From positions 4,192,001 to 4,256,000 of the forward strand of contig CBDCOH010000002.1 of the NCBI GenBank assembly GCA_965219685.1: 64,000 nt of DNA, given 5' to 3'. This document shows positions 33,061 to 43,310 of the stretch, one piece after another. The notes under the pieces were generated by a model. It saw only the letters and a program-made list of their open reading frames with translations, was not told where the DNA came from and did no database searches. This DNA comes from Candidatus Spongiisociaceae bacterium (GTDB lineage: Bacteria > Actinomycetota > Acidimicrobiia > Spongiisociales > Spongiisociaceae). Made by a program: the position numbers and the translations under genes. Each line of letters opens with the position of its first letter. Within the stretch, counting starts at the first letter, position 1.

Positions 33061-36024
33061 TCATGGACTCCAGCGCACTCCTTCCGGAGCGCGGGGCCAG
33101 CAGGTGATCGTGTCGTCGGTTGCGATGGCGCAGGTGTGTCTTTTGTAGGCCGTGATGGCTTTGTAGGTGCCCGGGATCGAGTCGGGAATGTCGCCATCGA
33201 CGCCTCCCCAGCAGGAGACGGTGTCGTCGTCGGCGATGGCGCAGCTGTGGGTCGATCCGGCTGCGACGGCTTTGTACGTGCCGGCGGGCGCGTCGGCCTG
33301 GCCGTCGTTGTTCTTTCCCCAGCAGGTGATGGTGTCGTCGTCGGCGATGGCGCAGCTGTGGTACCCGCCGACTGTGACGGCCTTGTAGGTGCCGGTGGGC
33401 GCTTTGGCCTGGCGGTTGTTGTTCTTTCCCCAGCAGGAGACGGTGTCGTCGGTTGCGATTGCGCACGTGTGATGCAGACCGGGTGTGACGGTCTTGTAGG
33501 TGCCCGCGGGCACGTTGGACTGTCCGAAGCCCCAGCAGGTGACCGTGTCGTCGATCGTTGTGGCGCAGGTGTGGTGCGTGCCGGCTGTGACGGCCTTGTA
33601 GGTGCCGGTGGGCGCGTCGGTCCGGCCGTAGAGGGCGCTTCCCCAGCAGGTCATGGTGTCGTCGGCGGTGATGGCGCAGGTGTGGTCGTCGCCCGATGAG
33701 AGCGCCCGATGCGCGCCTGCGGGCGCGTCGGTCTGCCCGTAGTAATTGGCTCCCCAGCAGTCGATGGTGTCGTCGGATGTGATGGCACAGCTGTGGTCCC
33801 AGCCGACTGCGACAGATTTGTAGGTGCCTGCGGGCGCGTCGGTCTGCCCGAAGTTGTTGTACCCCCAGCAGGTGATGGTGTCGTCGTCGGCGATGGCGCA
33901 GCTGTGATACTCGCCGAGTGCGACGGTCTTGTGGGTACCGGCCGGGGCCTCTGCGGGCCCGTTGTAGTTCTCTCCCCAGCAGGTGACGGAGTCGTCGGTG
34001 GCGATGGCGCAACTGTGACTCTCGCCGGAGACGACCGCCTTGTAGGTGCCTGCGGGCGGATCGGTCTGCCCGAAGTCGTTGGCTCCCCAGCAGTCGATGT
34101 TGTCGTCGGTCCTGATGGCGCACACGTGGTTGGTGCCGGTGTCGACCGCCTTGTAGGTGCCGGCGGGCGCGTCGGTCTGACCGTCGTAGTTCATTCCCCA
34201 GCACGCGAGGGTATCGTCGGTCTTGATGGCGCACTTGTGCTGGGACATGGACGCGAACATCTTGAATGTTCCGGCCGGCGCGTCGGACTGTCCGAAGCGG
34301 GTTGGCCCCCAGCAGTTGAGGGTGTCGTCGAACGCGACGGCGCAGGCGCTGTAGCTGCCGGCGTCGATGGCCTTGTAGGTGCCCGTCGGCGCGTCGATCC
34401 TTCCATGGATGCTGTTTCCCCAGCAGGCGACGGTGCCGTCAGTCCTGAGGGCACACGCATGCTCCCAGCCGTGGGTGACGGCCTTGAACGTTCCCTCGGG
34501 CGGGTCGGCCTGGCCGAAGGCGTTGGCGCCCCAGCAAGCCAGGGTGTCGTCGGTCTTGATGGCGCATGAGGAGTGGTCGTCCGCCGACTCGACCAGCTTG
34601 AAGGTGCCGGTCGGCACCTCGAGCTGGCCGTACTGGTTGTCCCCCCAGCAGGAGATGTTGCCGTCGATGCGCAGGCCGCACACGTGGATGCGGCCGACGA
34701 CGACAGACTGGAAGGCGCCGGCCGGCGTGTCGGTCTGCCCGGAGATGTTCCTGCCCCAGCAGGTGATGGCGCCGTCATAGCGCAGGCCGCACGTCTCGTA
34801 CTTGTTGGCGGAGAGTGATTTGAATCCTTTGTTGTTGGTTGTTTGGTGGTGGCCAGGCATGTTGTGGCGGGCGAGGTGGGATTGGGTGTTGGTGGTGACC
34901 CACATCGAGGCGCCGTTGGACCAGATGCCCCATGGTTTGTCGGTGCCGGTGTCTGCGAGGGTGTTGATGTCTCTTTCTGTGGTGCGGGCGCCGTTGGAGA
35001 GCCGGTAGGCGTAGATCTTGTCGTCGCGGTCGTCGGCCACCCAGAGGGTGGTGCCGTCGGACCAGAATCCCCTGGGGTGGTTGTTGCCGGCGGCGTCGAG
35101 GGTGTCGATGTCTTTGCCCTGGACGCGGGCGCCGTTGGAGAGCCGGTAGGCGTAGATCTTGTCGTCTTCGTCGTCGGCGATCCAGAGGGTGGTTCCGTTG
35201 GACCAGATGCCCATGGGCTTGGTGTTGCCTGCGGCTTCGAGGGTGATGATCACCTTGGACGCGTCGCGGGCGCCGTCGGCGAGGCCGTAGGCGTATACCC
35301 AGTTGTCGCGGCCGTCGGCGACCCAGAGGGTGGTTCCGTCGGACCACATGCCTCGGGGGGTGGTGTTGCCTGCGGCTTCGAGGGTGATGATCACCTTGGA
35401 CGCGTCGCGGGCGCCGTCGGCGAGGCTGTAGGCGTACACCTTGTCCTCGCCGTTGTCGGCGATCCAGATGGTGGTGCCGTCGGACCAGATGCCGCGGCTG
35501 GCGCTGTTGTCCTCGTCCAACGATGCTGTCGTCCACTCAACCGCCGAGACATCCTCTTCGGTCTCCACGGGCTCTTCCGGCTCCTGCGACGGTGGAGCCG
35601 CCGGAGTGTTGGCGCGAACGAACCCCGACTGCGGGCTGAGCCCGTGCGCGTTGCGGGCCTTGACCCGGTACACGTACCGGGTCGACGCCTCAACAGTCGT
35701 GTCGGTGTAACCGGTGGCATCAGCGGCCACGGCGTCATCGATGATCTCGAACGCGCCTGCGGCCTGCACGGCGCGGTTGCGACGAAGAACCTGATAACCC
35801 GTGATGGAGGAGTCCCCCGGATCGTTCCACGACAGCGTCACCGAGTCATGTGACACAGCGGTAACGGCAAGCCCCTGTGGCGTATCGGGCACGTTCCCGC
35901 TCTGCGCCGCCGCGGCGGCGACCACCGCCAAGGAGACCACCGCCGCGCACACCACCGCGTACTGCAGCCTTCTACGACGACCCCCCGCACGGCCTTCTGG
36001 GGCGAGCCTCAGCTCTTGGACCAC
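33061..36024 (-). CDS. Secreted Fn3 + beta-propeller (GIWSDGTT repeats) + RCC1-like repeat protein (987 aa)
   Basis: GTG 36024 lies 7 nt after GAAGGAG. Signal peptide, shared Fn3 and ~36-aa H.CAI..DDT..CWG.N..GQ repeats. Confidence 0.85.
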   Translation of the reverse strand: MVQELRLAPEGRAGGRRRRLQYAVVCAAVVSLAVVAAAAAQSGNVPDTPQGLAVTAVSHDSVTLSWNDPGDSSITGYQVLRRNRAVQAAGAFEIIDDAVAADATGYTDTTVEASTRYVYRVKARNAHGLSPQSGFVRANTPAAPPSQEPEEPVETEEDVSAVEWTTASLDEDNSASRGIWSDGTTIWIADNGEDKVYAYSLADGARDASKVIITLEAAGNTTPRGMWSDGTTLWVADGRDNWVYAYGLADGARDASKVIITLEAAGNTKPMGIWSNGTTLWIADDEDDKIYAYRLSNGARVQGKDIDTLDAAGNNHPRGFWSDGTTLWVADDRDDKIYAYRLSNGARTTERDINTLADTGTDKPWGIWSNGASMWVTTNTQSHLARHNMPGHHQTTNNKGFKSLSANKYETCGLRYDGAITCWGRNISGQTDTPAGAFQSVVVGRIHVCGLRIDGNISCWGDNQYGQLEVPTGTFKLVESADDHSSCAIKTDDTLACWGANAFGQADPPEGTFKAVTHGWEHACALRTDGTVACWGNSIHGRIDAPTGTYKAIDAGSYSACAVAFDDTLNCWGPTRFGQSDAPAGTFKMFASMSQHKCAIKTDDTLACWGMNYDGQTDAPAGTYKAVDTGTNHVCAIRTDDNIDCWGANDFGQTDPPAGTYKAVVSGESHSCAIATDDSVTCWGENYNGPAEAPAGTHKTVALGEYHSCAIADDDTITCWGYNNFGQTDAPAGTYKSVAVGWDHSCAITSDDTIDCWGANYYGQTDAPAGAHRALSSGDDHTCAITADDTMTCWGSALYGRTDAPTGTYKAVTAGTHHTCATTIDDTVTCWGFGQSNVPAGTYKTVTPGLHHTCAIATDDTVSCWGKNNNRQAKAPTGTYKAVTVGGYHSCAIADDDTITCWGKNNDGQADAPAGTYKAVAAGSTHSCAIADDDTVSCWGGVDGDIPDSIPGTYKAITAYKRHTCAIATDDTITCWPRAPEGVRWSP

Positions 36025-38975
36025 CAGTTCACTCCTTCGGGAGTGCGCGGCCAGCAGTTGATGGTGTCGTCGGTTGCGATGGCGCAGGTGTGTCTCTTGT
36101 GGGCCGTTATGGCTCTGTAGGTGCCGGGGATCGAGTCGGGGTTGTCGCCATCCTTGCCTCCCCAGCAGTTGATGGCGCCGTCGGTGGCGATGGCGCAGGA
36201 GTGGATCCGGCCCAGCGCGAGGGCCTTGTAGGTGCCGGTGGGCGCGCTGGTCTGCCCGTGGTCGTTTTGTCCCCAGCAGGAGACGGTGTCGTCGGTTGCG
36301 ATGGCGCAGGAGTGGTGCCCGCCGGCTGCGAGCGTCTTGTAGGTGCCGGTGGGCGCTCTGGTCTGGCGATAGTTGTTTCGTCCCCAGCAGTTGATGGTGT
36401 CGTCGGTGGCGATGGCGCAGGTGTGGTACCGGCCCAGCGCGAGGGCCTTGTAGGTGCCGGTGGGCGCGTTGGTCTGGCCATGGTCGTTTTGTCCCCAGCA
36501 GTTGATGGTGTCGTCGGTGGCGATAGCGCAGGAGTGGTTTTGGCGAAGCGCGAGCGTGCTGAAGGTGCCGGTGGGCGCGTCGGTCTGCCCGGAGGTGTTG
36601 AGCCCCCAGCAGGTGATGGTGTCGTCGGCGGCGATGGCGCAGATGTGGTCGTCGCCTGATGACAGTGCCTTGTGCGTGCCTGCGGGTGTGCCGGTCTGCC
36701 CGAGGGAGTTGTCTCCCCAGCAGGCGATCGTGCCGTCGGTTGTCATGGCGCAGCTGTGAAAGAGGCCGGTTACGACGGTCTTGTGGGTGCCGGTGGGCGC
36801 GTCGGTCTGTCCGAGGTCGTTCAGTCCCTGGCAGGTGATCGTGTCGTCGGCCCCTATGGCGCAGCTGTGATACTCGCCGACAGCGACGGCCTTGTGGGTG
36901 CCGGCCTGCGGCTCCGCAAGCGCGTTGTAGTTCTCTCCCCAGCAGGTGACGGAGTCGTCGGTCGCGATGGCGCAAGTGTGGTAACCGCTGGCGAGGACAG
37001 TCTTGAAGGTGCCGGCCGGCGCGTCTGAATTGCCGTAGAGGTTGGATCCCCAGCACGCCAGAGTGTCGTCGAGTGCAATCGCACAAGTGTGGGTGATGCC
37101 GCTGCTGACCGTCCTGTAGGTGCCGGCTGGCGGGTCTGACTGGCCATTGCGGTTGTCTCCCCAGCACACCAGCGTGTCGTTGGTGGCGATGGCGCACGTA
37201 TGCTCGGACCCGGTCGAGAACCTCTTGTACGTCCCGGCCGGCTCGTCGGACTGCCGGTAGCGTTGGTACCCCCAGCAGTTGAGGGTGTCGTCGAGCGCGA
37301 GCGCACAAGTGTGGACTTCGCCGGCGTCGATTGCCTTGTAGGTGCCCCTCGGCGGTTCGTCCACTCCCTGGTTGCTGTATCCCCAGCAGGCGATCTTGCC
37401 GTTGGTCCTGAGGGCGCACACGTGCTCCCAGCCGATGGTCATGGCCTTGAACGTTCCTTCAGGCGCCTCGGCCTGACCGAAGGAGTTGTATCCCCAGCAG
37501 GCCATGGTGTCGTCGGTCTTGATGGCGCACGAGGTCCGGTCGTGCGCCTCAATATCCTTGTAGGTGCCGGCCGGCGCCTCGAGCTGGAGGAAGGCGTTGT
37601 CACCCCAGCAGGCGATGGTGTCGTCGGTCTTGATGGCGCACATATGCATGCTGCTGGTGACGAATGACTTGTAGGTGCCGTCCGGTACGCCGATCTGCCC
37701 ATGGCTGTTCACCCCCCAGCAGGAGATGGTGCCGTCATAGCGCAGGCCGCAGGTGTCGTGGGCGTTGGATGAGAGTGCCTTGAAGCCTTTGTTGTTGGTT
37801 GTTTGGTGGTGGCCGGGCATGTCGTGGCGGGCGAGGTGGGATTGGGTGTTGCTGGCGACCCACATGGAGGCTTCGTTGGACCAGATGCCCCAGGGTTTGT
37901 CGGTGCCGGTGTCGTCGAGGCTGTCGATGTCCTTGTCCGGCGTGCGGGCGCCGTTGGAGAGTCGGTAGGCGTAGATCTTGTCGTCGCGGTCGTCCGCCAC
38001 CCACAGGGTGGTTCCGTCGGACCAGATGCCCCTGGGGTTGTTGTTACCCGCCGCATCCAGGGTGTCGATGTCCTTGCCGGGTGTGCGGGTGCCGTTGTCG
38101 ATCCGGTAGGCGTAGATCTTGTCGTCCTCGTCGTCGGCGATCCAGAGGGTGGTTCCGTTCGACCAGATGCCCATGGGCTTGGTGTTGCCCGCCGCTTCGA
38201 GGGTGATGATCACCTTGGACGCGTCGCGGACGCCGTCGGCGAGGCTATAGGCGTATACCCAGTTGTCGCGGCCGTCGGCGACCCAGACGGTGGTTCCGTC
38301 GGACCACACGCCCCGGGGAGTGGTGTTACCGGCGGCGGCGAGGGTGTTGATGTCTTTGGACGTGTCCCGGGTGCCGTCGGCAAGGGTGTAGGCGTAGACC
38401 TTGTCCTCGGCGTTGTCGGCCACCCATACGGTGGTGCTGTCGGACCAGATCCCACGGCTGGCGGTGTTGTCCTCGTCTAACGATGCCGTCGTCCACTCCA
38501 CCGCCGAGACGACCTCCTCGGTCTCCTCGGTCTCCTGCGGGGGTGGAGCCGCCGGAGTGTTGGCGCGAACGAACCCCGACTGCGCGCTAAGGCCCTCAGC
38601 GTTGCGGGCCTTGACCCGGTAGACGTACCGGGCCGATGCCTCAACAGTCGTGTCGGTGTAACCGGTGGCGTCAGCAGCCACCGCGTCATCGATGACGTCG
38701 AACACGCCCGCAGCGTGCACGGCGCGGTTGCGGCGAAGAACCTGATATCCCGTGATGGACGAGTCCCCCGGATCGTTCCACGACAGCGTCACCGAGTCAT
38801 GGGCCACAGCACTAACGGCAAGCCCCTGCGGCGCATCGGGCTCATCCCCCGTCTGGGCCGCCGCGGTGGCGACCACCGCCGCTGAGATCCCCGCCACCAC
38901 TGCAACAACCCGAAGAAAAGTCATCGAGCACATGGTTTGGCTGGCCGCTCTAGGAACCCGACGCTGCTTGCCCAT
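36009..38975 (-). CDS. Secreted Fn3 + beta-propeller + RCC1-like repeat protein (988 aa), tandem paralog
   Basis: Starts MGKQRRV after leader copy H and is collinear with 33061..36024. Confidence 0.9.
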   Translation of the reverse strand: MGKQRRVPRAASQTMCSMTFLRVVAVVAGISAAVVATAAAQTGDEPDAPQGLAVSAVAHDSVTLSWNDPGDSSITGYQVLRRNRAVHAAGVFDVIDDAVAADATGYTDTTVEASARYVYRVKARNAEGLSAQSGFVRANTPAAPPPQETEETEEVVSAVEWTTASLDEDNTASRGIWSDSTTVWVADNAEDKVYAYTLADGTRDTSKDINTLAAAGNTTPRGVWSDGTTVWVADGRDNWVYAYSLADGVRDASKVIITLEAAGNTKPMGIWSNGTTLWIADDEDDKIYAYRIDNGTRTPGKDIDTLDAAGNNNPRGIWSDGTTLWVADDRDDKIYAYRLSNGARTPDKDIDSLDDTGTDKPWGIWSNEASMWVASNTQSHLARHDMPGHHQTTNNKGFKALSSNAHDTCGLRYDGTISCWGVNSHGQIGVPDGTYKSFVTSSMHMCAIKTDDTIACWGDNAFLQLEAPAGTYKDIEAHDRTSCAIKTDDTMACWGYNSFGQAEAPEGTFKAMTIGWEHVCALRTNGKIACWGYSNQGVDEPPRGTYKAIDAGEVHTCALALDDTLNCWGYQRYRQSDEPAGTYKRFSTGSEHTCAIATNDTLVCWGDNRNGQSDPPAGTYRTVSSGITHTCAIALDDTLACWGSNLYGNSDAPAGTFKTVLASGYHTCAIATDDSVTCWGENYNALAEPQAGTHKAVAVGEYHSCAIGADDTITCQGLNDLGQTDAPTGTHKTVVTGLFHSCAMTTDGTIACWGDNSLGQTGTPAGTHKALSSGDDHICAIAADDTITCWGLNTSGQTDAPTGTFSTLALRQNHSCAIATDDTINCWGQNDHGQTNAPTGTYKALALGRYHTCAIATDDTINCWGRNNYRQTRAPTGTYKTLAAGGHHSCAIATDDTVSCWGQNDHGQTSAPTGTYKALALGRIHSCAIATDGAINCWGGKDGDNPDSIPGTYRAITAHKRHTCAIATDDTINCWPRTPEGVNWWSKS

Positions 38976-39236
38976 TATCCCGGACCTCTTGCCGTTCCCA
39001 TGGCCGGTCGACCTGCGCTAATTCTGGCTCCGGCGAACTCGCGGGCTGATCTCTGGACGCTGCAAGGCTGCCCTACCTGTGGGCCTTCCCTGGGCGTTTC
39101 TCCCCTGGGGACCTATTGACTTCATCCGTACCCGTACCGGCTTCGATCCGGATGGTAATCGAGATGCCGCTATCCCACAAGCGTAAGCATGAGATAGCCG
39201 TAAGATAGTTGGCTATCTATATCAAATTACTGTAAA
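38976..39236 (-). promoter_or_regulatory. Conserved promoter/leader element, copy H
   Basis: TTTACA-N5-TTGATA-N13-ATCTTA-N5-ATCTCA-N9-TTGTGG-N17-TACCAT, then the leader to ATG 38975. Confidence 0.8.
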
Positions 39237-39526
39237 CTCAGGTGCAGCACGTGCGGGTCGGGGACTATCGCCGCCGCTTCCTTGTACGTGGGACTACACA
39301 GAGCCGCATGAGACCACATAAGCTCCACACAAGACCGAAGTCTATCCGCGGACACAGCATCTGATTGAGGCTCTAGGAGATCGCACAAAACCAGGAAACG
39401 GCGGTCGCCCCACCGCCGAACCTCGGAGCACCTGACCTCAGCAGTGGTCTTGGCAACGGACTCTGTGCCGGATGGTCCGCAAAGACTCGCGCAGTTGCCT
39501 ATGTCAAGAGGATCCCCACCCCCCCA

Positions 39527-39550
39527 TGAACCGCCCCGGAACCGCCCCGG
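39527..39550 (+). repeat. Outer half of an IS3-family (IS6110/IS629-like) terminal inverted repeat, split by IS110; 11-bp tandem duplication
   Basis: TGAACCGCCCCGG followed by AACCGCCCCGG. The inner half TTTCCCCGGAGACTC resumes at 41035. Confidence 0.75.
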
Positions 39551-39556
39551 ATGCTC

Positions 39557-40789
39557 CTATGTTTTGCAAATCGGTTTTGTGGTGGGGTCGGTGAGCCATT
39601 TCTGGTAGCGGGTGGCGAGCTGGTGGTTGTGGTGGAGGCCTCGTTCGAGGAGCGATAGGAGGGTGGGGTGGACCTGGAGGTGTTCGGCGGCGTCGGTGAG
39701 GGTTAATCGGGTTTGGTGGCGTTGGTGGCGGAGGTCGTTGCCGTCGGGTGTCGGGGACGGTTTGGTTAGGAGGTGGTAGATCTCGCGGGCGATGTGCCGT
39801 TTCAGGCAGCGGATGATCTCGCGGCGGGTTTTGCCTTCGGCTTTGCGTCTGCGGGTGTATTCGATGGTGCGGGGGTCGGTGCGCATCCGGTTGGTGGCGA
39901 TTCGCCAGAGAGCGTTGTTGGCTTGGCGGTCGCCGCCTCGGTTGAGCCGATGCCGAACTATCTGTCCCGATGATGCTTGGACGGGGCTGAGGGCGCATAG
40001 TGCCGCGAAGGACCGTTCCGATTTCATGCGTTGGGGGTTGTCGCCGGCGGCGACTAGGAGTGCTGCAGCGCTGTGGGGGCCCACTCCGGAGGCGGCTAGG
40101 AGCGCCGGGTTGGCCTTGGCGCAGAGACGGCGGATCTCGGTGTCGAGTTCGGCTATTTCTGTGTCGAGGGTCCGGTATCGGCGGGCCAGGTGCCGCAGCG
40201 CCCTCTTCGCGTACGCGGTGGTGGTCTGCGCTTCGCCGGGACGCCAGCGGACACAGATTCTGACCATCGCTCAGATACTGGAGCCCCGGAGCCGATGTTT
40301 GACCTGCTCAGGGGCGGTTGTGAGGAGGGCGTGGATCTGGTTGGCGGCCTGGGTGCGTGCTTTGACCGCTGAACGGCGAGCCATCCGAAGCATTCTTATC
40401 CCTTCTACGGGTCCGTCCCCGCCTTTGGGTCGCCCGGTGGCATCTCCGCTGAGGGCAGCTCGGGCTGCGGCCTCGGCGTCGACGGTGTCGGTCTTGCCCC
40501 TGAGACGACGCAGCTGGCGGTTGGGACGCATGACCTCCACCACCTCGATGCCCACTCGGGTCAGATAACGAGCCAGGCCGGCGCCGTAACTGCCGGTGCC
40601 CTCCACACCGACCTGAACAGGCCGCCCCCAGGAGCGAAGCCACTCCTCCAGCTGCGCGTATCCCGCCGCATCAGCCCTGAACTCCTCTGCTCCCAGTAGG
40701 CGACCCGTGTGATCCAGCACGGCCCCAACGTGGATATCCCGATGGGTATCAACCCCTCCAAACACATCGACCTGGCCTCTCTCCGGCAT
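39557..40789 (-). pseudogene. IS110 transposase/recombinase with in-frame TGA (40273-40271) and a C-terminal XRE-like HTH
   Basis: GVDTH, VGVEGTGSYG and KTDTVDA (DEDD); GVG...SSG...NRGGDRQAN. ORFs 40271..40864 and 39557..40267 share a frame (ATC TGA GCG ATG). Confidence 0.85.
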
Positions 40790-40849
40790 GCGCTCTGCCT
40801 CCCCTCTCCTTGTTGGAATAGGCTTTGTGCGGCAGCGCCGGTCCGAAGC

Positions 40850-41020
40850 GGGTGGACAAAACACTCAGGGTGTGGGGAAGAAACGACCAAAGCTCCTATG
40901 AGGTCACATCCGCTCCGGGCTGGCTGCCCGTACCCCCCGACCGGTGCCCGGCCGACAGATCCGGGGTAAGGCACCACAGCCAGTTTCCCGGTGGGTCAGA
41001 CCGGACCCCGGTCGAGGTCC
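40850..41020 (-). ncRNA. Putative IS110 bridge RNA
   Basis: Minus strand carries GGGAAAC (40989-40983) and CCCCGG (40966-40961), matching the target halves, then CATAGGAGC (40900-40892) and TGAGTG (40867-40862), matching the donor junction halves. Boundaries approximate. Confidence 0.75.
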
Positions 41021-41605
41021 CTTAAGTATGAGTGTTTCCCCGGAGACTCATTTGAGCAAGTCTCACAACCTTCTGTGTCAACCCCTCGCGGGTTCGGACT
41101 TGAGGGACTTCTATTTGGAAGATGTTCTCCCTTCTTCGGTTTAGCCAAGCGGTGGAGGTACGCATCCGAGTGTGGGCACCTGTGCTGACAGGGCCGACAC
41201 GGACGTGTGGATGGCCGCCCCGGTAGTCTGGACCGATGGGCACTGGCTGGTCTCCTGCAGAGGGTTCTGCCCCTTCGTGGGTCGCTTGAGGACGGCCAAG
41301 CAGATCTGTCCGAAAGGACCCCCGACCACACATCGGTTCCGAGGCCAGAACCATCGAGGGCGGCTCCGGGTTCTACGACCCCGTGGACCTGCCCGACGAT
41401 GTGCGGCTGCGCGTGAATAGGGCAGCCCGGTGGTAGCACAGGGAACCCGGTGACGCGTAGTCTCCCTCAGTCTGATTCATCTCATAGGCGGCTGCCTACC
41501 GATAACTTCCTAACAGGGTCTGAGAACGCCATCTCGTGCGTGCTGTGGGATCAAAGGTGGGACGAATCCTACCAAAAAGCTGTTTACCTGGGCTTTACCC
41601 GGTCC

Positions 41606-41657
41606 TAAACTTCGCTGCCCCTGAGGGGCGTGTGGGTTCGAATCCCACCCCGGGTAC
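41606..41657 (+). other. 3' half of tRNA-Leu (likely TAA); att-like island boundary
   Basis: TAAACTTCGCTGCCCCTGAGGGGCGTGTGGGTTCGAATCCCACCCCGGGTAC gives the anticodon 3' side, long variable arm, T-arm and acceptor 3' strand. No 5' half or D-arm upstream. Confidence 0.7.
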
Positions 41658-42066
41658 TCGGTTCCCCTACGTTTCTGACGCGGTTACTCAGCGTTTCGCA
41701 TACTCCCCAAAAGGCCAGGTCACAGGCATGTCAGACAAGGGTCTGAAGCGGTGGCGGCTGATCGTTGCGCTGTGTCGAATGTTCCTGGTATCTCGCTCCG
41801 TTCCGGGTCTTCATCCAGGTGTGGGACAGATAGTCGGACATAAAGGGGGGCGAATGGCCAAAGCTGACAGCCGCCTTAGCGCGATCAGTCAACGGGGCAG
41901 GTGAGTACGGCGACCGGGCACGGCCTGATCCCCCGGGTTCCGCGATCGGGTTCCAGACAATGGATATGACGCAGAACCGTAGCCCGCAACCGATGAGATC
42001 TAGATGACATGGGATAGTTGGAGGGCGTATAGTTGGATGGGAGGCCTAGGAGTCGTGGAGAAGCCG

Positions 42067-43310
42067 ATGAGGGCACGTCGGGTTCTGATGGTGTGTGCTC
42101 TGGTCGCCTGGGGTTTGGCACCGGTGCCTGTTCCTGCGTCCGGGGTGGATCCGGCTATCGCGGCGGACGGTTTGTGCTCTCCGGGTTCGGTCAGCCAGTT
42201 CTCCGACGTCGAGGTGGGTGATTACGGGGCTGAGTACATACTGTGTATGCGAGCGTTGGGCCTGTCGGTCGGCAGGGGCGATGGGTCTTACGGGCCGGAG
42301 TTGGAGTTGTCCAGGGCACAGACGGCCTCGTTTTTGGTGCGGTTGTGGAGTGATGCGTTGGAGAAGCACTGCCCGGGCGGTGTGGAAACACCGTTCGTCG
42401 ACGTTGCTGGTAACACTCATGAGGCCAGCATCGGCTGTTTGTACGGCTTGGAGGTGACCAAGGGCAAGACTGCGGTCACCACGGGCCGAGCGAGAACCTG
42501 AGGGCCTCCGAGATAGCCATGTTCTTGATGCGTCTGTATGAGAGGGCGGGCAACAGTTGCGGGGCAGCGGACGATGAGTTGGAGCGGGCGGTTGAGTGTC
42601 TGACTGCGATGAAGGTCACCCCGTCGGTTGCCGAAGCCAGTTCCCACGAGTCTGTGACCAGGGACCAGATGGCTGTGTACGTGATCGGGTTGTGGCACAA
42701 CATGGCTGGCCACGGTCTGCCGCCGGACCCTCCGGAGAAGCCCTACAACCACAGCTCCGGTAGCGATAAGGCAGGCTTGTCCCGTCGTCCCGACCAAGAC
42801 GACGACGATGACGACGACTCGACATCGACCACGCTGGGAAGTTCAACGACGATCGCTACTGATAATGACGGTACGGATAGCGATGGGTATGACACGCCGG
42901 AGACCGACTCGTCGACTTCGACTTCGACGGTGACGACTTCCGTGACGTCGACGACGGTGGGGAGTTCAACGACGATCGCTACTGATAATGACGGTACGGA
43001 TAGCGATGGGTATGACACGCCGGAGACCGACTCGTCGACTTCGACTTCGACGGTGACGACTTCCGTGACGTCGACGACGGTGGGGAGTTCAACGACGATC
43101 GCTACTGATAATGACGGTACGGATAGCGATGGGTATGACACGCCGGAGACCGACTCGTCGACTTCGACTTCGACGGTGACGACTTCCGTGACGTCGACGA
43201 CGGTGGGGAGTTCAACGACGATCGCTACTGATAATGACGGTACGGATAGCGATGGGTATGACACGCCGACTACTTCTGTGTCGGTCAGCGACAGCGACGA
43301 CAGCGGCTGA
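42067..43310 (+). pseudogene. SLH-domain protein with D/S/T-rich repeat tail, frameshifted at ~42480
   Basis: One added T (ACC TAC GGG CCG) joins ORFs 42004..42501 and 42519..43310 into the SLH motif TYGPSENLRASEIAMFL. A sequencing error cannot be excluded. Confidence 0.7.
42840..43268 (+). repeat. Perfect 123-bp tandem repeat, ~3.5 copies (41 aa unit)
   Basis: Units start at 42840, 42963, 43086 and 43209, encoding STTIATDNDGTDSDGYDTPETDSSTSTSTVTTSVTSTTVGS. Confidence 0.95.

Follow-up and report, generated by a model that had tools for sequence, protein, structure and literature searches.

What leads an insertion sequence (IS) of the IS110 group to one particular point inside the terminal repeat of another mobile element? 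The question is raised by a locus of Candidatus Spongiisociaceae bacterium (Acidimicrobiia; GenBank assembly GCA_965219685.1, contig CBDCOH010000002.1, positions 4,192,001 to 4,256,000), which was analysed as a window of 64,000 nt; coordinates given without a prefix are positions within that window. Here an IS110-group element on the minus strand (Table 1) splits a 28-bp IS3-type terminal inverted repeat into 13 and 15 bp. It is highly probable that a bridge RNA from the left end of the element guides it to this point (13|15) of the left-hand repeat of IS3-family elements. The copy present in the window is defective, its recombinase gene being broken.

The two halves of the repeat lie on either side of the element and, after conceptual excision, the joined sequence agrees with the repeat pattern at all 23 of its 23 specified bases. 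On the minus strand the left terminus reads (C)ACTCATACTT at 41034/41033, beginning (C)ACTCAT, and the right terminus reads ..CATAGGAGCAT(C) at 39551(39550). Because other copies terminate ..GGAGCAT-C, which places the element end at 39551, the 11 bp at 39540-39550 are a duplication of the flank and not a part of the element. The original prediction, made from the letters of the window, had excision restoring an intact 28-mer; the repeat halves do indeed flank the element, but the restoration is clean only if 39540-39550 is removed as well, and a real excision would leave the repeat plus 11 additional bases. The repeated unit of this duplication begins exactly at the core C; a comparable 15-bp tandem repeat occurs at another relic repeat, near G000:C2:2939860 (G000 is the 4.42-Mb assembly). 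The layout is that of the IS110 group, with a long left end and a short right end, the reverse of the IS1111 group: the left end (41033-40790, about 245 nt) is non-coding and lies upstream of the recombinase gene, and just 6 nt lie between the stop codon and the right end. As elsewhere in that group, the ends carry no long inverted repeats, and the short core that stands at each junction occurs a single time in the empty site.

The whole of G000 was searched for other copies. Two more full copies with 97-98% identity were found, c215k (G000:C2:215872-217382) and c3020k, together with c3131k (its left part is f3129k), which is interrupted by another element and truncated at its right end, and f3094k, a left-end fragment of the same subfamily. 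A second subfamily at ~71% identity, class D below, is also present in this genome. All five left junctions of the subfamily with at least 95% identity abut a variant of the inner half of the repeat, and all three of its intact right junctions abut the outer half, just as had been anticipated for any further copies. L023 and L032, relatives from two other genomes, have inserted at the identical point of this repeat. It could be argued that the repeat halves travel as part of the mobile unit, and the alignments of some copies do extend 10-15 nt into the flanks. The flanks nevertheless differ between copies (GAGTCTC/GACTCTC and CGGGGCGG/CGGTCCGG) and these small differences therefore mark separate targets, not carried sequence; furthermore, uninterrupted repeats occur as the ends of IS3 elements, and sister classes share the element's termini but have wholly different flanks. 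Carriage of the halves is thus extremely improbable.

The repeat itself is that of an IS3-family element resident in the genome, 1323 bp long. It is bounded by terminal inverted repeats and has the IS3 organisation, an OrfA and an OrfB in -1 frames with a DDE (rve) transposase; for OrfB the NCBIfam IS3 model (NF033516, cut-off 160) gives 240.9 bits. Four copies are at 99.8% identity or above and two more are at 89%. Their 28-bp repeats fit the pattern TGAACCGCCCCGG-N5-CCGGAGACTC, which agrees with the IS6110 repeats printed in the accessible text of PMC5896891 at 13/13 outer and 10/10 inner bases, the central 5 being different. The intact copy c3020k has entered the left repeat of an IS3 copy from the 89% pair, and L032 that of a full IS3 copy, adjoining its OrfA; in the related genome G001, four uninserted repeats are the left ends of IS3 elements. 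The proposed targeting of an IS3-family end repeat is borne out by these insertions. The IS3 copy that hosts c3020k (L003:3298-4273) is 89% identical to the main copies and looks frameshifted, since its OrfB match is split over two frames; it is probably decayed. Elsewhere there are units of ~49 bp without an interior, each made of two facing, overlapping IS3-type repeats (G000:C2:2939823-2939871 and 3129977-3130012), which resemble a minimal relic or miniature element, and one of these has been struck by the IS110-group element (f3129k).

It is the repeat, however, and not the complete IS3 element, that most insertions occupy, and this must be set against our reading: an IS3 body adjoins just one of the five insertions in this genome. 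None was found beside the window copy by blastn, tblastx or tblastn, and c215k, f3129k and f3094k likewise have no adjoining IS3 body. It is possible, although on balance doubtful, that guidance operates as proposed but that the aim is a harmless multicopy landing pad, the repeat being abundant, non-essential and mostly present as solitary relics. The four insertions without an IS3 body, that of the window among them, would suit such a safe harbour, as would L023, which occupies the same position in a solitary repeat with no IS3 body within about 2.2 kb. So too would the four identical, presumably young IS3 copies, which carry no insertion, and the sister classes, which aim at other repeats such as a 13-nt pattern with 32 exact copies in G001. 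On the other hand, two insertions (c3020k and L032) are in the left ends of full IS3 copies. An IS3 end split in this way would be expected to lose its function whatever the aim of the insertion, and the landing-pad and attack readings are not mutually exclusive.

The recombinase of the element has the two domains expected of the family, matching Pfam PF01548 (DEDD_Tnp_IS110) with 83.8 bits and PF02371 (Transposase_20) with 65.9 bits, and the intact copy scores 203.6 bits on the NCBIfam IS110 RNA-guided transposase model (NF033542, cut-off 140). A search of PDB with the single sequence gave 0 hits; a profile of 7 relatives matches the IS621 structure 8wt6 with an E value of 1.3e-12. Residues D14, E63, D101, D104 and S274 are invariant in those 7 relatives and align with the DEDD motif and serine segments of IS621. 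The recombinases of this clade carry ~70 extra C-terminal residues compared to IS621, and in this extension (P0001 residues ~345-393; about 39570-39760, minus strand) there are weak helix-turn-helix matches, to Pfam HTH_31 (23.1 bits, below the cut-off of 27) and to helix-turn-helix chains of the HipB/Xre type in PDB (E 0.09-0.9). In the window copy the reading frame is cut between the two domains by an in-frame TGA, so that it could move only with recombinase supplied by an intact copy such as c3020k, the sole copy with an open frame. The same TGA is found in c215k, at a different locus; therefore either the defective element has moved at least once, mobilised in trans, or the copies have exchanged sequence.

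Within the left end are four short stretches that correspond to the target and to the joined ends of the element, and every string cited for them in the original prediction was located at minus-strand coordinates. The left target guide (LTG), CCGGGAAAC, which includes GGGAAAC at 40989-40983, reads in the same direction as the left half of the target together with the core, and the right target guide (RTG), CCCCGG, complements the core plus the target's right half. The left donor guide (LDG) is CATAGGAGC and the right donor guide (RDG) is TGAGTG. Evidence on these guides comes from the relatives, 15 in sponge-associated Acidimicrobiia genomes plus further copies in G001, which fall in at least eight target classes (the IS3 repeat, D, L028, G, L034, L035, L121 and L124); all come from a few related genomes and the classes are not independent samples of evolution. 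In every class the stretch 5' of a conserved inner hairpin repeats the left flank, and the one 3' of it gives core and right flank in reverse complement. In class D, for example, left flank, core and right flank are CGCGAAAA-C-GTGGG, with LTG CGCGAAAAC and RTG CCCACG; in class G they are ACTGAAATC-C-GATGA, with an LTG, ACTGAAATC, that is the same as the flank and RTG TCATCG; and in class L121 they are CCTCGTAA-C-ATGAC, with LTG CCTCGTAAC and RTG GTCATG. The match was quantified in a matrix of guides against flanks for 13 elements (L026, which is without a left flank, was excluded). The longest exact words shared by guides and flanks sum to a mean of 13.2 nt where both are from the same class (n=33, minimum 6), compared to 6.5 nt where they are from different classes (n=132, maximum 10). 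In G001, 16 of the 17 G-class copies are in their cognate repeat. The RDG in turn co-varies with the left terminus, in pairs CACTCA/TGAGTG, CTCTCA/TGAGAG and CACACA/TGTGTG, L034 and L035 being the ones that differ. The guide logic first read from a single copy is thus repeated in eight classes, with guides that change along with the flanks.

These data also bear on whether the protein alone might pick the target, with the matches between left end and flank owed to coincidence or common descent. The extra C-terminal stretch of the recombinase, with its weak helix-turn-helix matches, could be taken to favour this, and the guidance proposed here is predicted from DNA sequence. Yet both guides change with the flanks in all eight classes among recombinases that are 51-83% identical; the family is named 'RNA-guided' in NCBIfam, and dependence on RNA is established for IS621 in the accessible text of PMC11208160. 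Choice of target by the protein alone is consequently very improbable, and we return to a guiding RNA as the preferred explanation. An observation on the guide-coding DNA itself was made in L030, upstream of position 2501, where the terminal ~51 nt of the left end, up to and including the LTG, occur three times in tandem; it looks as if this DNA had itself served as half of a target.

If the left end is transcribed into a bridge RNA, its fold should be conserved among the relatives. An RNAalifold consensus of 14 non-identical left ends, from which 25 pairs were kept, has both guide-bearing regions closed by stems and the target guides in an internal loop. The 25 pairs are formed in 95.4% of cells, compared to 35-51% when the partners are slid by 1-3 columns, and the observed pairing or covariation score was reached by 0/500 shuffles; 7 pairs are altered on both sides, that is, by compensatory changes. 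The predicted RNA would therefore have the form typical of the IS110 group: two internal loops, one for the target and one for the donor, each with guides that correspond to opposite strands of its DNA. As to its expression, promoter halves are described for both ends of IS110-family elements, to be rebuilt across the junction of the circle form (accessible text of PMC11208160). In the window element a -35-like hexamer in the right end and a -10-like hexamer in the left end (Table 1) would together agree with 8/12 consensus positions in the predicted junction, the spacing being worked out from the coordinates. Scanning of the integrated locus for a sigma-70-like promoter gave 0 sites. The spacing of TTGCAA and CATACT would fit the family's junction promoter, from which transcription would occur in the circle form only.

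The junctions also define the core at which the exchange would take place. Only a C is common to donor and target, and the empty sites of three classes carry one C at the crossover (GGGAAAC-C-CGGGG in the IS3-repeat class, AAATC-C-GATGA in the G class and GAAAA-C-GTGG in the D class), which upholds the apparent 1-bp core suggested beforehand. Across the eight classes donors always have T immediately ahead of this C, and targets have A or C there. A shared 2-nt core (AC/TC) was considered and rejected, as the left junctions are all A-C or C-C and the right junctions all T-C, and the CT dinucleotide of IS621 and its close relatives is not found here. The bases next to the guides are informative in this respect. 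The AU 3' of the RTG complements the AT that precedes the core in the donor, and the bases 3' of the RDG track the last bases of the target (UUU/AAA, GUUU/AAAC, UUC/GAA and UC/GA), so each set is complementary to the non-cognate DNA, as are the handshake guides of the IS110 group. In the accessible text of PMC11208158, IS621 has such handshake guides and a CT core whose first base is less conserved, and its bottom-strand cuts lie further left, so that mismatches need repair. The one-base core of the present element looks like a handshake shifted by one base and not like a new chemistry. No paper with the phrasing of a one-base core was found, although entries of this kind, or targets in IS3 repeats, may already be present in the supplementary tables of PMC11208160.

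Several further observations weigh against a guiding RNA as described. One G-class copy (L033, the same as L103) is in an unrelated flank; the thought that copies with the same guides might lie in unrelated targets thus applies to this copy, and to none of the subfamily junctions, all of which are in the IS3-type repeat. The contiguous match of the left guide is just 5 nt in c3020k and 7 nt in the window copy, and from class to class the left guide is set one base nearer to or further from the core. A U lies opposite the core G in L023 and in the G class. Regarding the fold, the 7 pairs changed on both sides were also reached in 137/500 shuffles, and RNAalifold draws small hairpins of invariant bases inside the LDG and RDG, which the alignment neither supports nor excludes. 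Folded as a single sequence, the left end has z = -1.0, with 33/200 shuffles as stable, and the two target guides pair with each other, because the target itself repeats CCGGGG. In the consensus fold the guides accordingly fall in internal loops, with the qualification of the small hairpins in the donor guides and of the guide-to-guide pairing in the single fold. The latter was rejected as a guide to structure, since that pairing is lost in the other classes. A search of Rfam gave 0 matches at E <= 1 over 38500-42500, which means only that no curated model fits. None of the sequencing runs listed as containing the element was an RNA run, and the four best of them derive from a single sample, possibly that of the assembly itself. 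Finally, in contigs of the sequencing runs there was no circle junction and no empty-site joint; as these contigs break within the repeat, this says nothing either way.

Taken with the anatomy, the common insertion site and the catalytic residues, the guides suggest the following course of events. Guided by the target loop, the recombinase would act at a single point (13|15) and in a single orientation in the 28-bp left inverted repeat of an IS3-family element, and the donor loop (CATAGGAGC and TGAGTG) would recognise the element's own joined ends. Exchange would be centred on the single C, with the AU and UUU 3' of the right guides pairing with the other DNA partner. The window copy would take part in this only with recombinase supplied by an intact copy such as c3020k.

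Table 1. Features of the IS110-group element and its insertion site (window coordinates)
Feature	Position	Strand	Remarks
IS110-group insertion sequence, body of 1483 bp without either core C	39551..41033	-	Ends by comparison of copies and empty sites
Core C, left-hand copy	41034	-	Junction comparison and empty sites
Core C, right-hand copy	39550	-	Last base of the 11-bp flank duplicate
Outer 13 bp of IS3-type inverted repeat, TGAACCGCCCCGG; right target flank	39527..39539	.	Same half after right end of c3020k; in c215k with two changes
Inner 15 bp of IS3-type inverted repeat, TTTCCCCGGAGACTC; left target flank	41035..41049	.	No IS3 body beyond
11-bp tandem duplicate of 39529-39539	39540..39550	.	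No such duplicate in other copies
Target-binding loop and closing stem (predicted)	40950..41002	-	LTG 40991-40983, inner hairpin 40982-40970, RTG 40966-40961, handshake AU 40960-40959
Donor-binding loop and closing stem (predicted)	40848..40913	-	LDG 40900-40892, RDG 40867-40862, handshake UUUU 40861-40858
Recombinase gene, DEDD RuvC-like domain and Tnp domain with serine, broken	39557..40789	-	PF01548 and PF02371
In-frame TGA between the two recombinase domains	40271..40273	-	CAA in c3020k and c3131k
-35-like hexamer TTGCAA, 13 nt from last base of right end	39564..39569	-	TTGACA in ~71% subfamily
-10-like hexamer CATACT in left end	41025..41030	-	17 nt from -35-like hexamer across predicted circle junction

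A second IS110 element, here called B, may have made a target of the first (A). It encodes a recombinase of 357 amino acids that scores 163.7 bits on the NCBIfam IS110 model, and it is present in two copies, at G000:C2:3130184-3131560 (minus strand; in L011/L072) and near C2:3051030-3052410 (L095). B lies within the RDG-encoding DNA of two different A-type left ends with differing flanks. Its own left end carries AGAACACTC and ACCGTGA at the matching places of a target loop; the left guide fits the site at 9/9 or 7/9 bases and the right guide fits with one mismatch. TC is common to both B junctions. The evidence consists of these two copies only: among 301 genomes of the class no close relative of B was found, the best match outside this genome being 58% identical, and the single-sequence fold of its left end is not distinctive. 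From the positions of these insertions a chain is possible, in which IS3 is the target of IS110-A and IS110-A that of IS110-B, so that one RNA-guided element would attack the guide-RNA gene of another. Tentatively, and with slightly more doubt than belief, we would put this chain together with the core described above and regard the clade as a naturally re-programmed series that needs one shared C, the preceding base now being left to the handshake.

The element can be compared to IS110-type systems already known. IS621 of E. coli, as set out in the accessible text of PMC11208160 and PMC11208158, resembles it in having a DEDD and serine recombinase, a long left end upstream of the gene, and a target loop followed by a donor loop. 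In both, the left guides read as the top strand does, the right guides are its complement, and handshake bases come directly after the latter; the putative promoter halves at the two ends of the present element would be a further likeness. It differs in that donor and target have CT in common, whereas here they share C alone; handshake bases here cover the position ahead of the core (T in the donor, A or C in the targets), and the additional C-terminal residues of the recombinase are a further difference. The natural target in the present case is an IS3 end repeat; REP (repetitive extragenic palindromic) elements are named as an example of IS110 targets in the accessible text of PMC11208160.

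The targeting of other mobile elements is not without precedent. IS1383 reportedly integrates into the inverted repeats of IS1384 (Muller et al. 2001) and, judged by the title of that report, is likewise an IS110-family element aimed at the end repeat of another insertion sequence. IS4321 and IS5075 are said to target the terminal repeats of Tn21-family transposons (Partridge and Hall 2003); again by title, they are of DEDD type and occupy a fixed place and orientation in the terminal repeat of another mobile element, but they are members of the IS1111 group, in which the guide RNA lies downstream of the gene, and their target is the repeat of a Tn3-family transposon. ISEc21, in the accessible text of PMC11187229, is an IS110-type element with an upstream non-coding RNA that is also aimed at IS3-family elements, its target being a conserved stretch inside their transposase genes. 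Given these precedents, the element of the window adds a clear new case to a behaviour that was already known for the IS110 type.

Two of the insertions have as neighbours genes for large proteins that look secreted and contain many RCC1-like CWG repeats (36009-38975, minus strand, and L003:27-1226); these are unrelated to the finding.

The value of this locus is that the guides of a bridge RNA can be read against a target that is known and has a biological meaning, since it is an end of another insertion sequence, with empty sites, occupied sites and re-programmed sister elements all available in the same and related genomes. For the engineering of bridge recombinases, the requirement for a single-C core is of interest, and the classes provide a natural table of combinations of guide, handshake and target. 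The IS3 end repeat joins the short list of mobile-element targets of IS110-type elements, and element B hints at layered conflicts among elements that are themselves RNA-guided.

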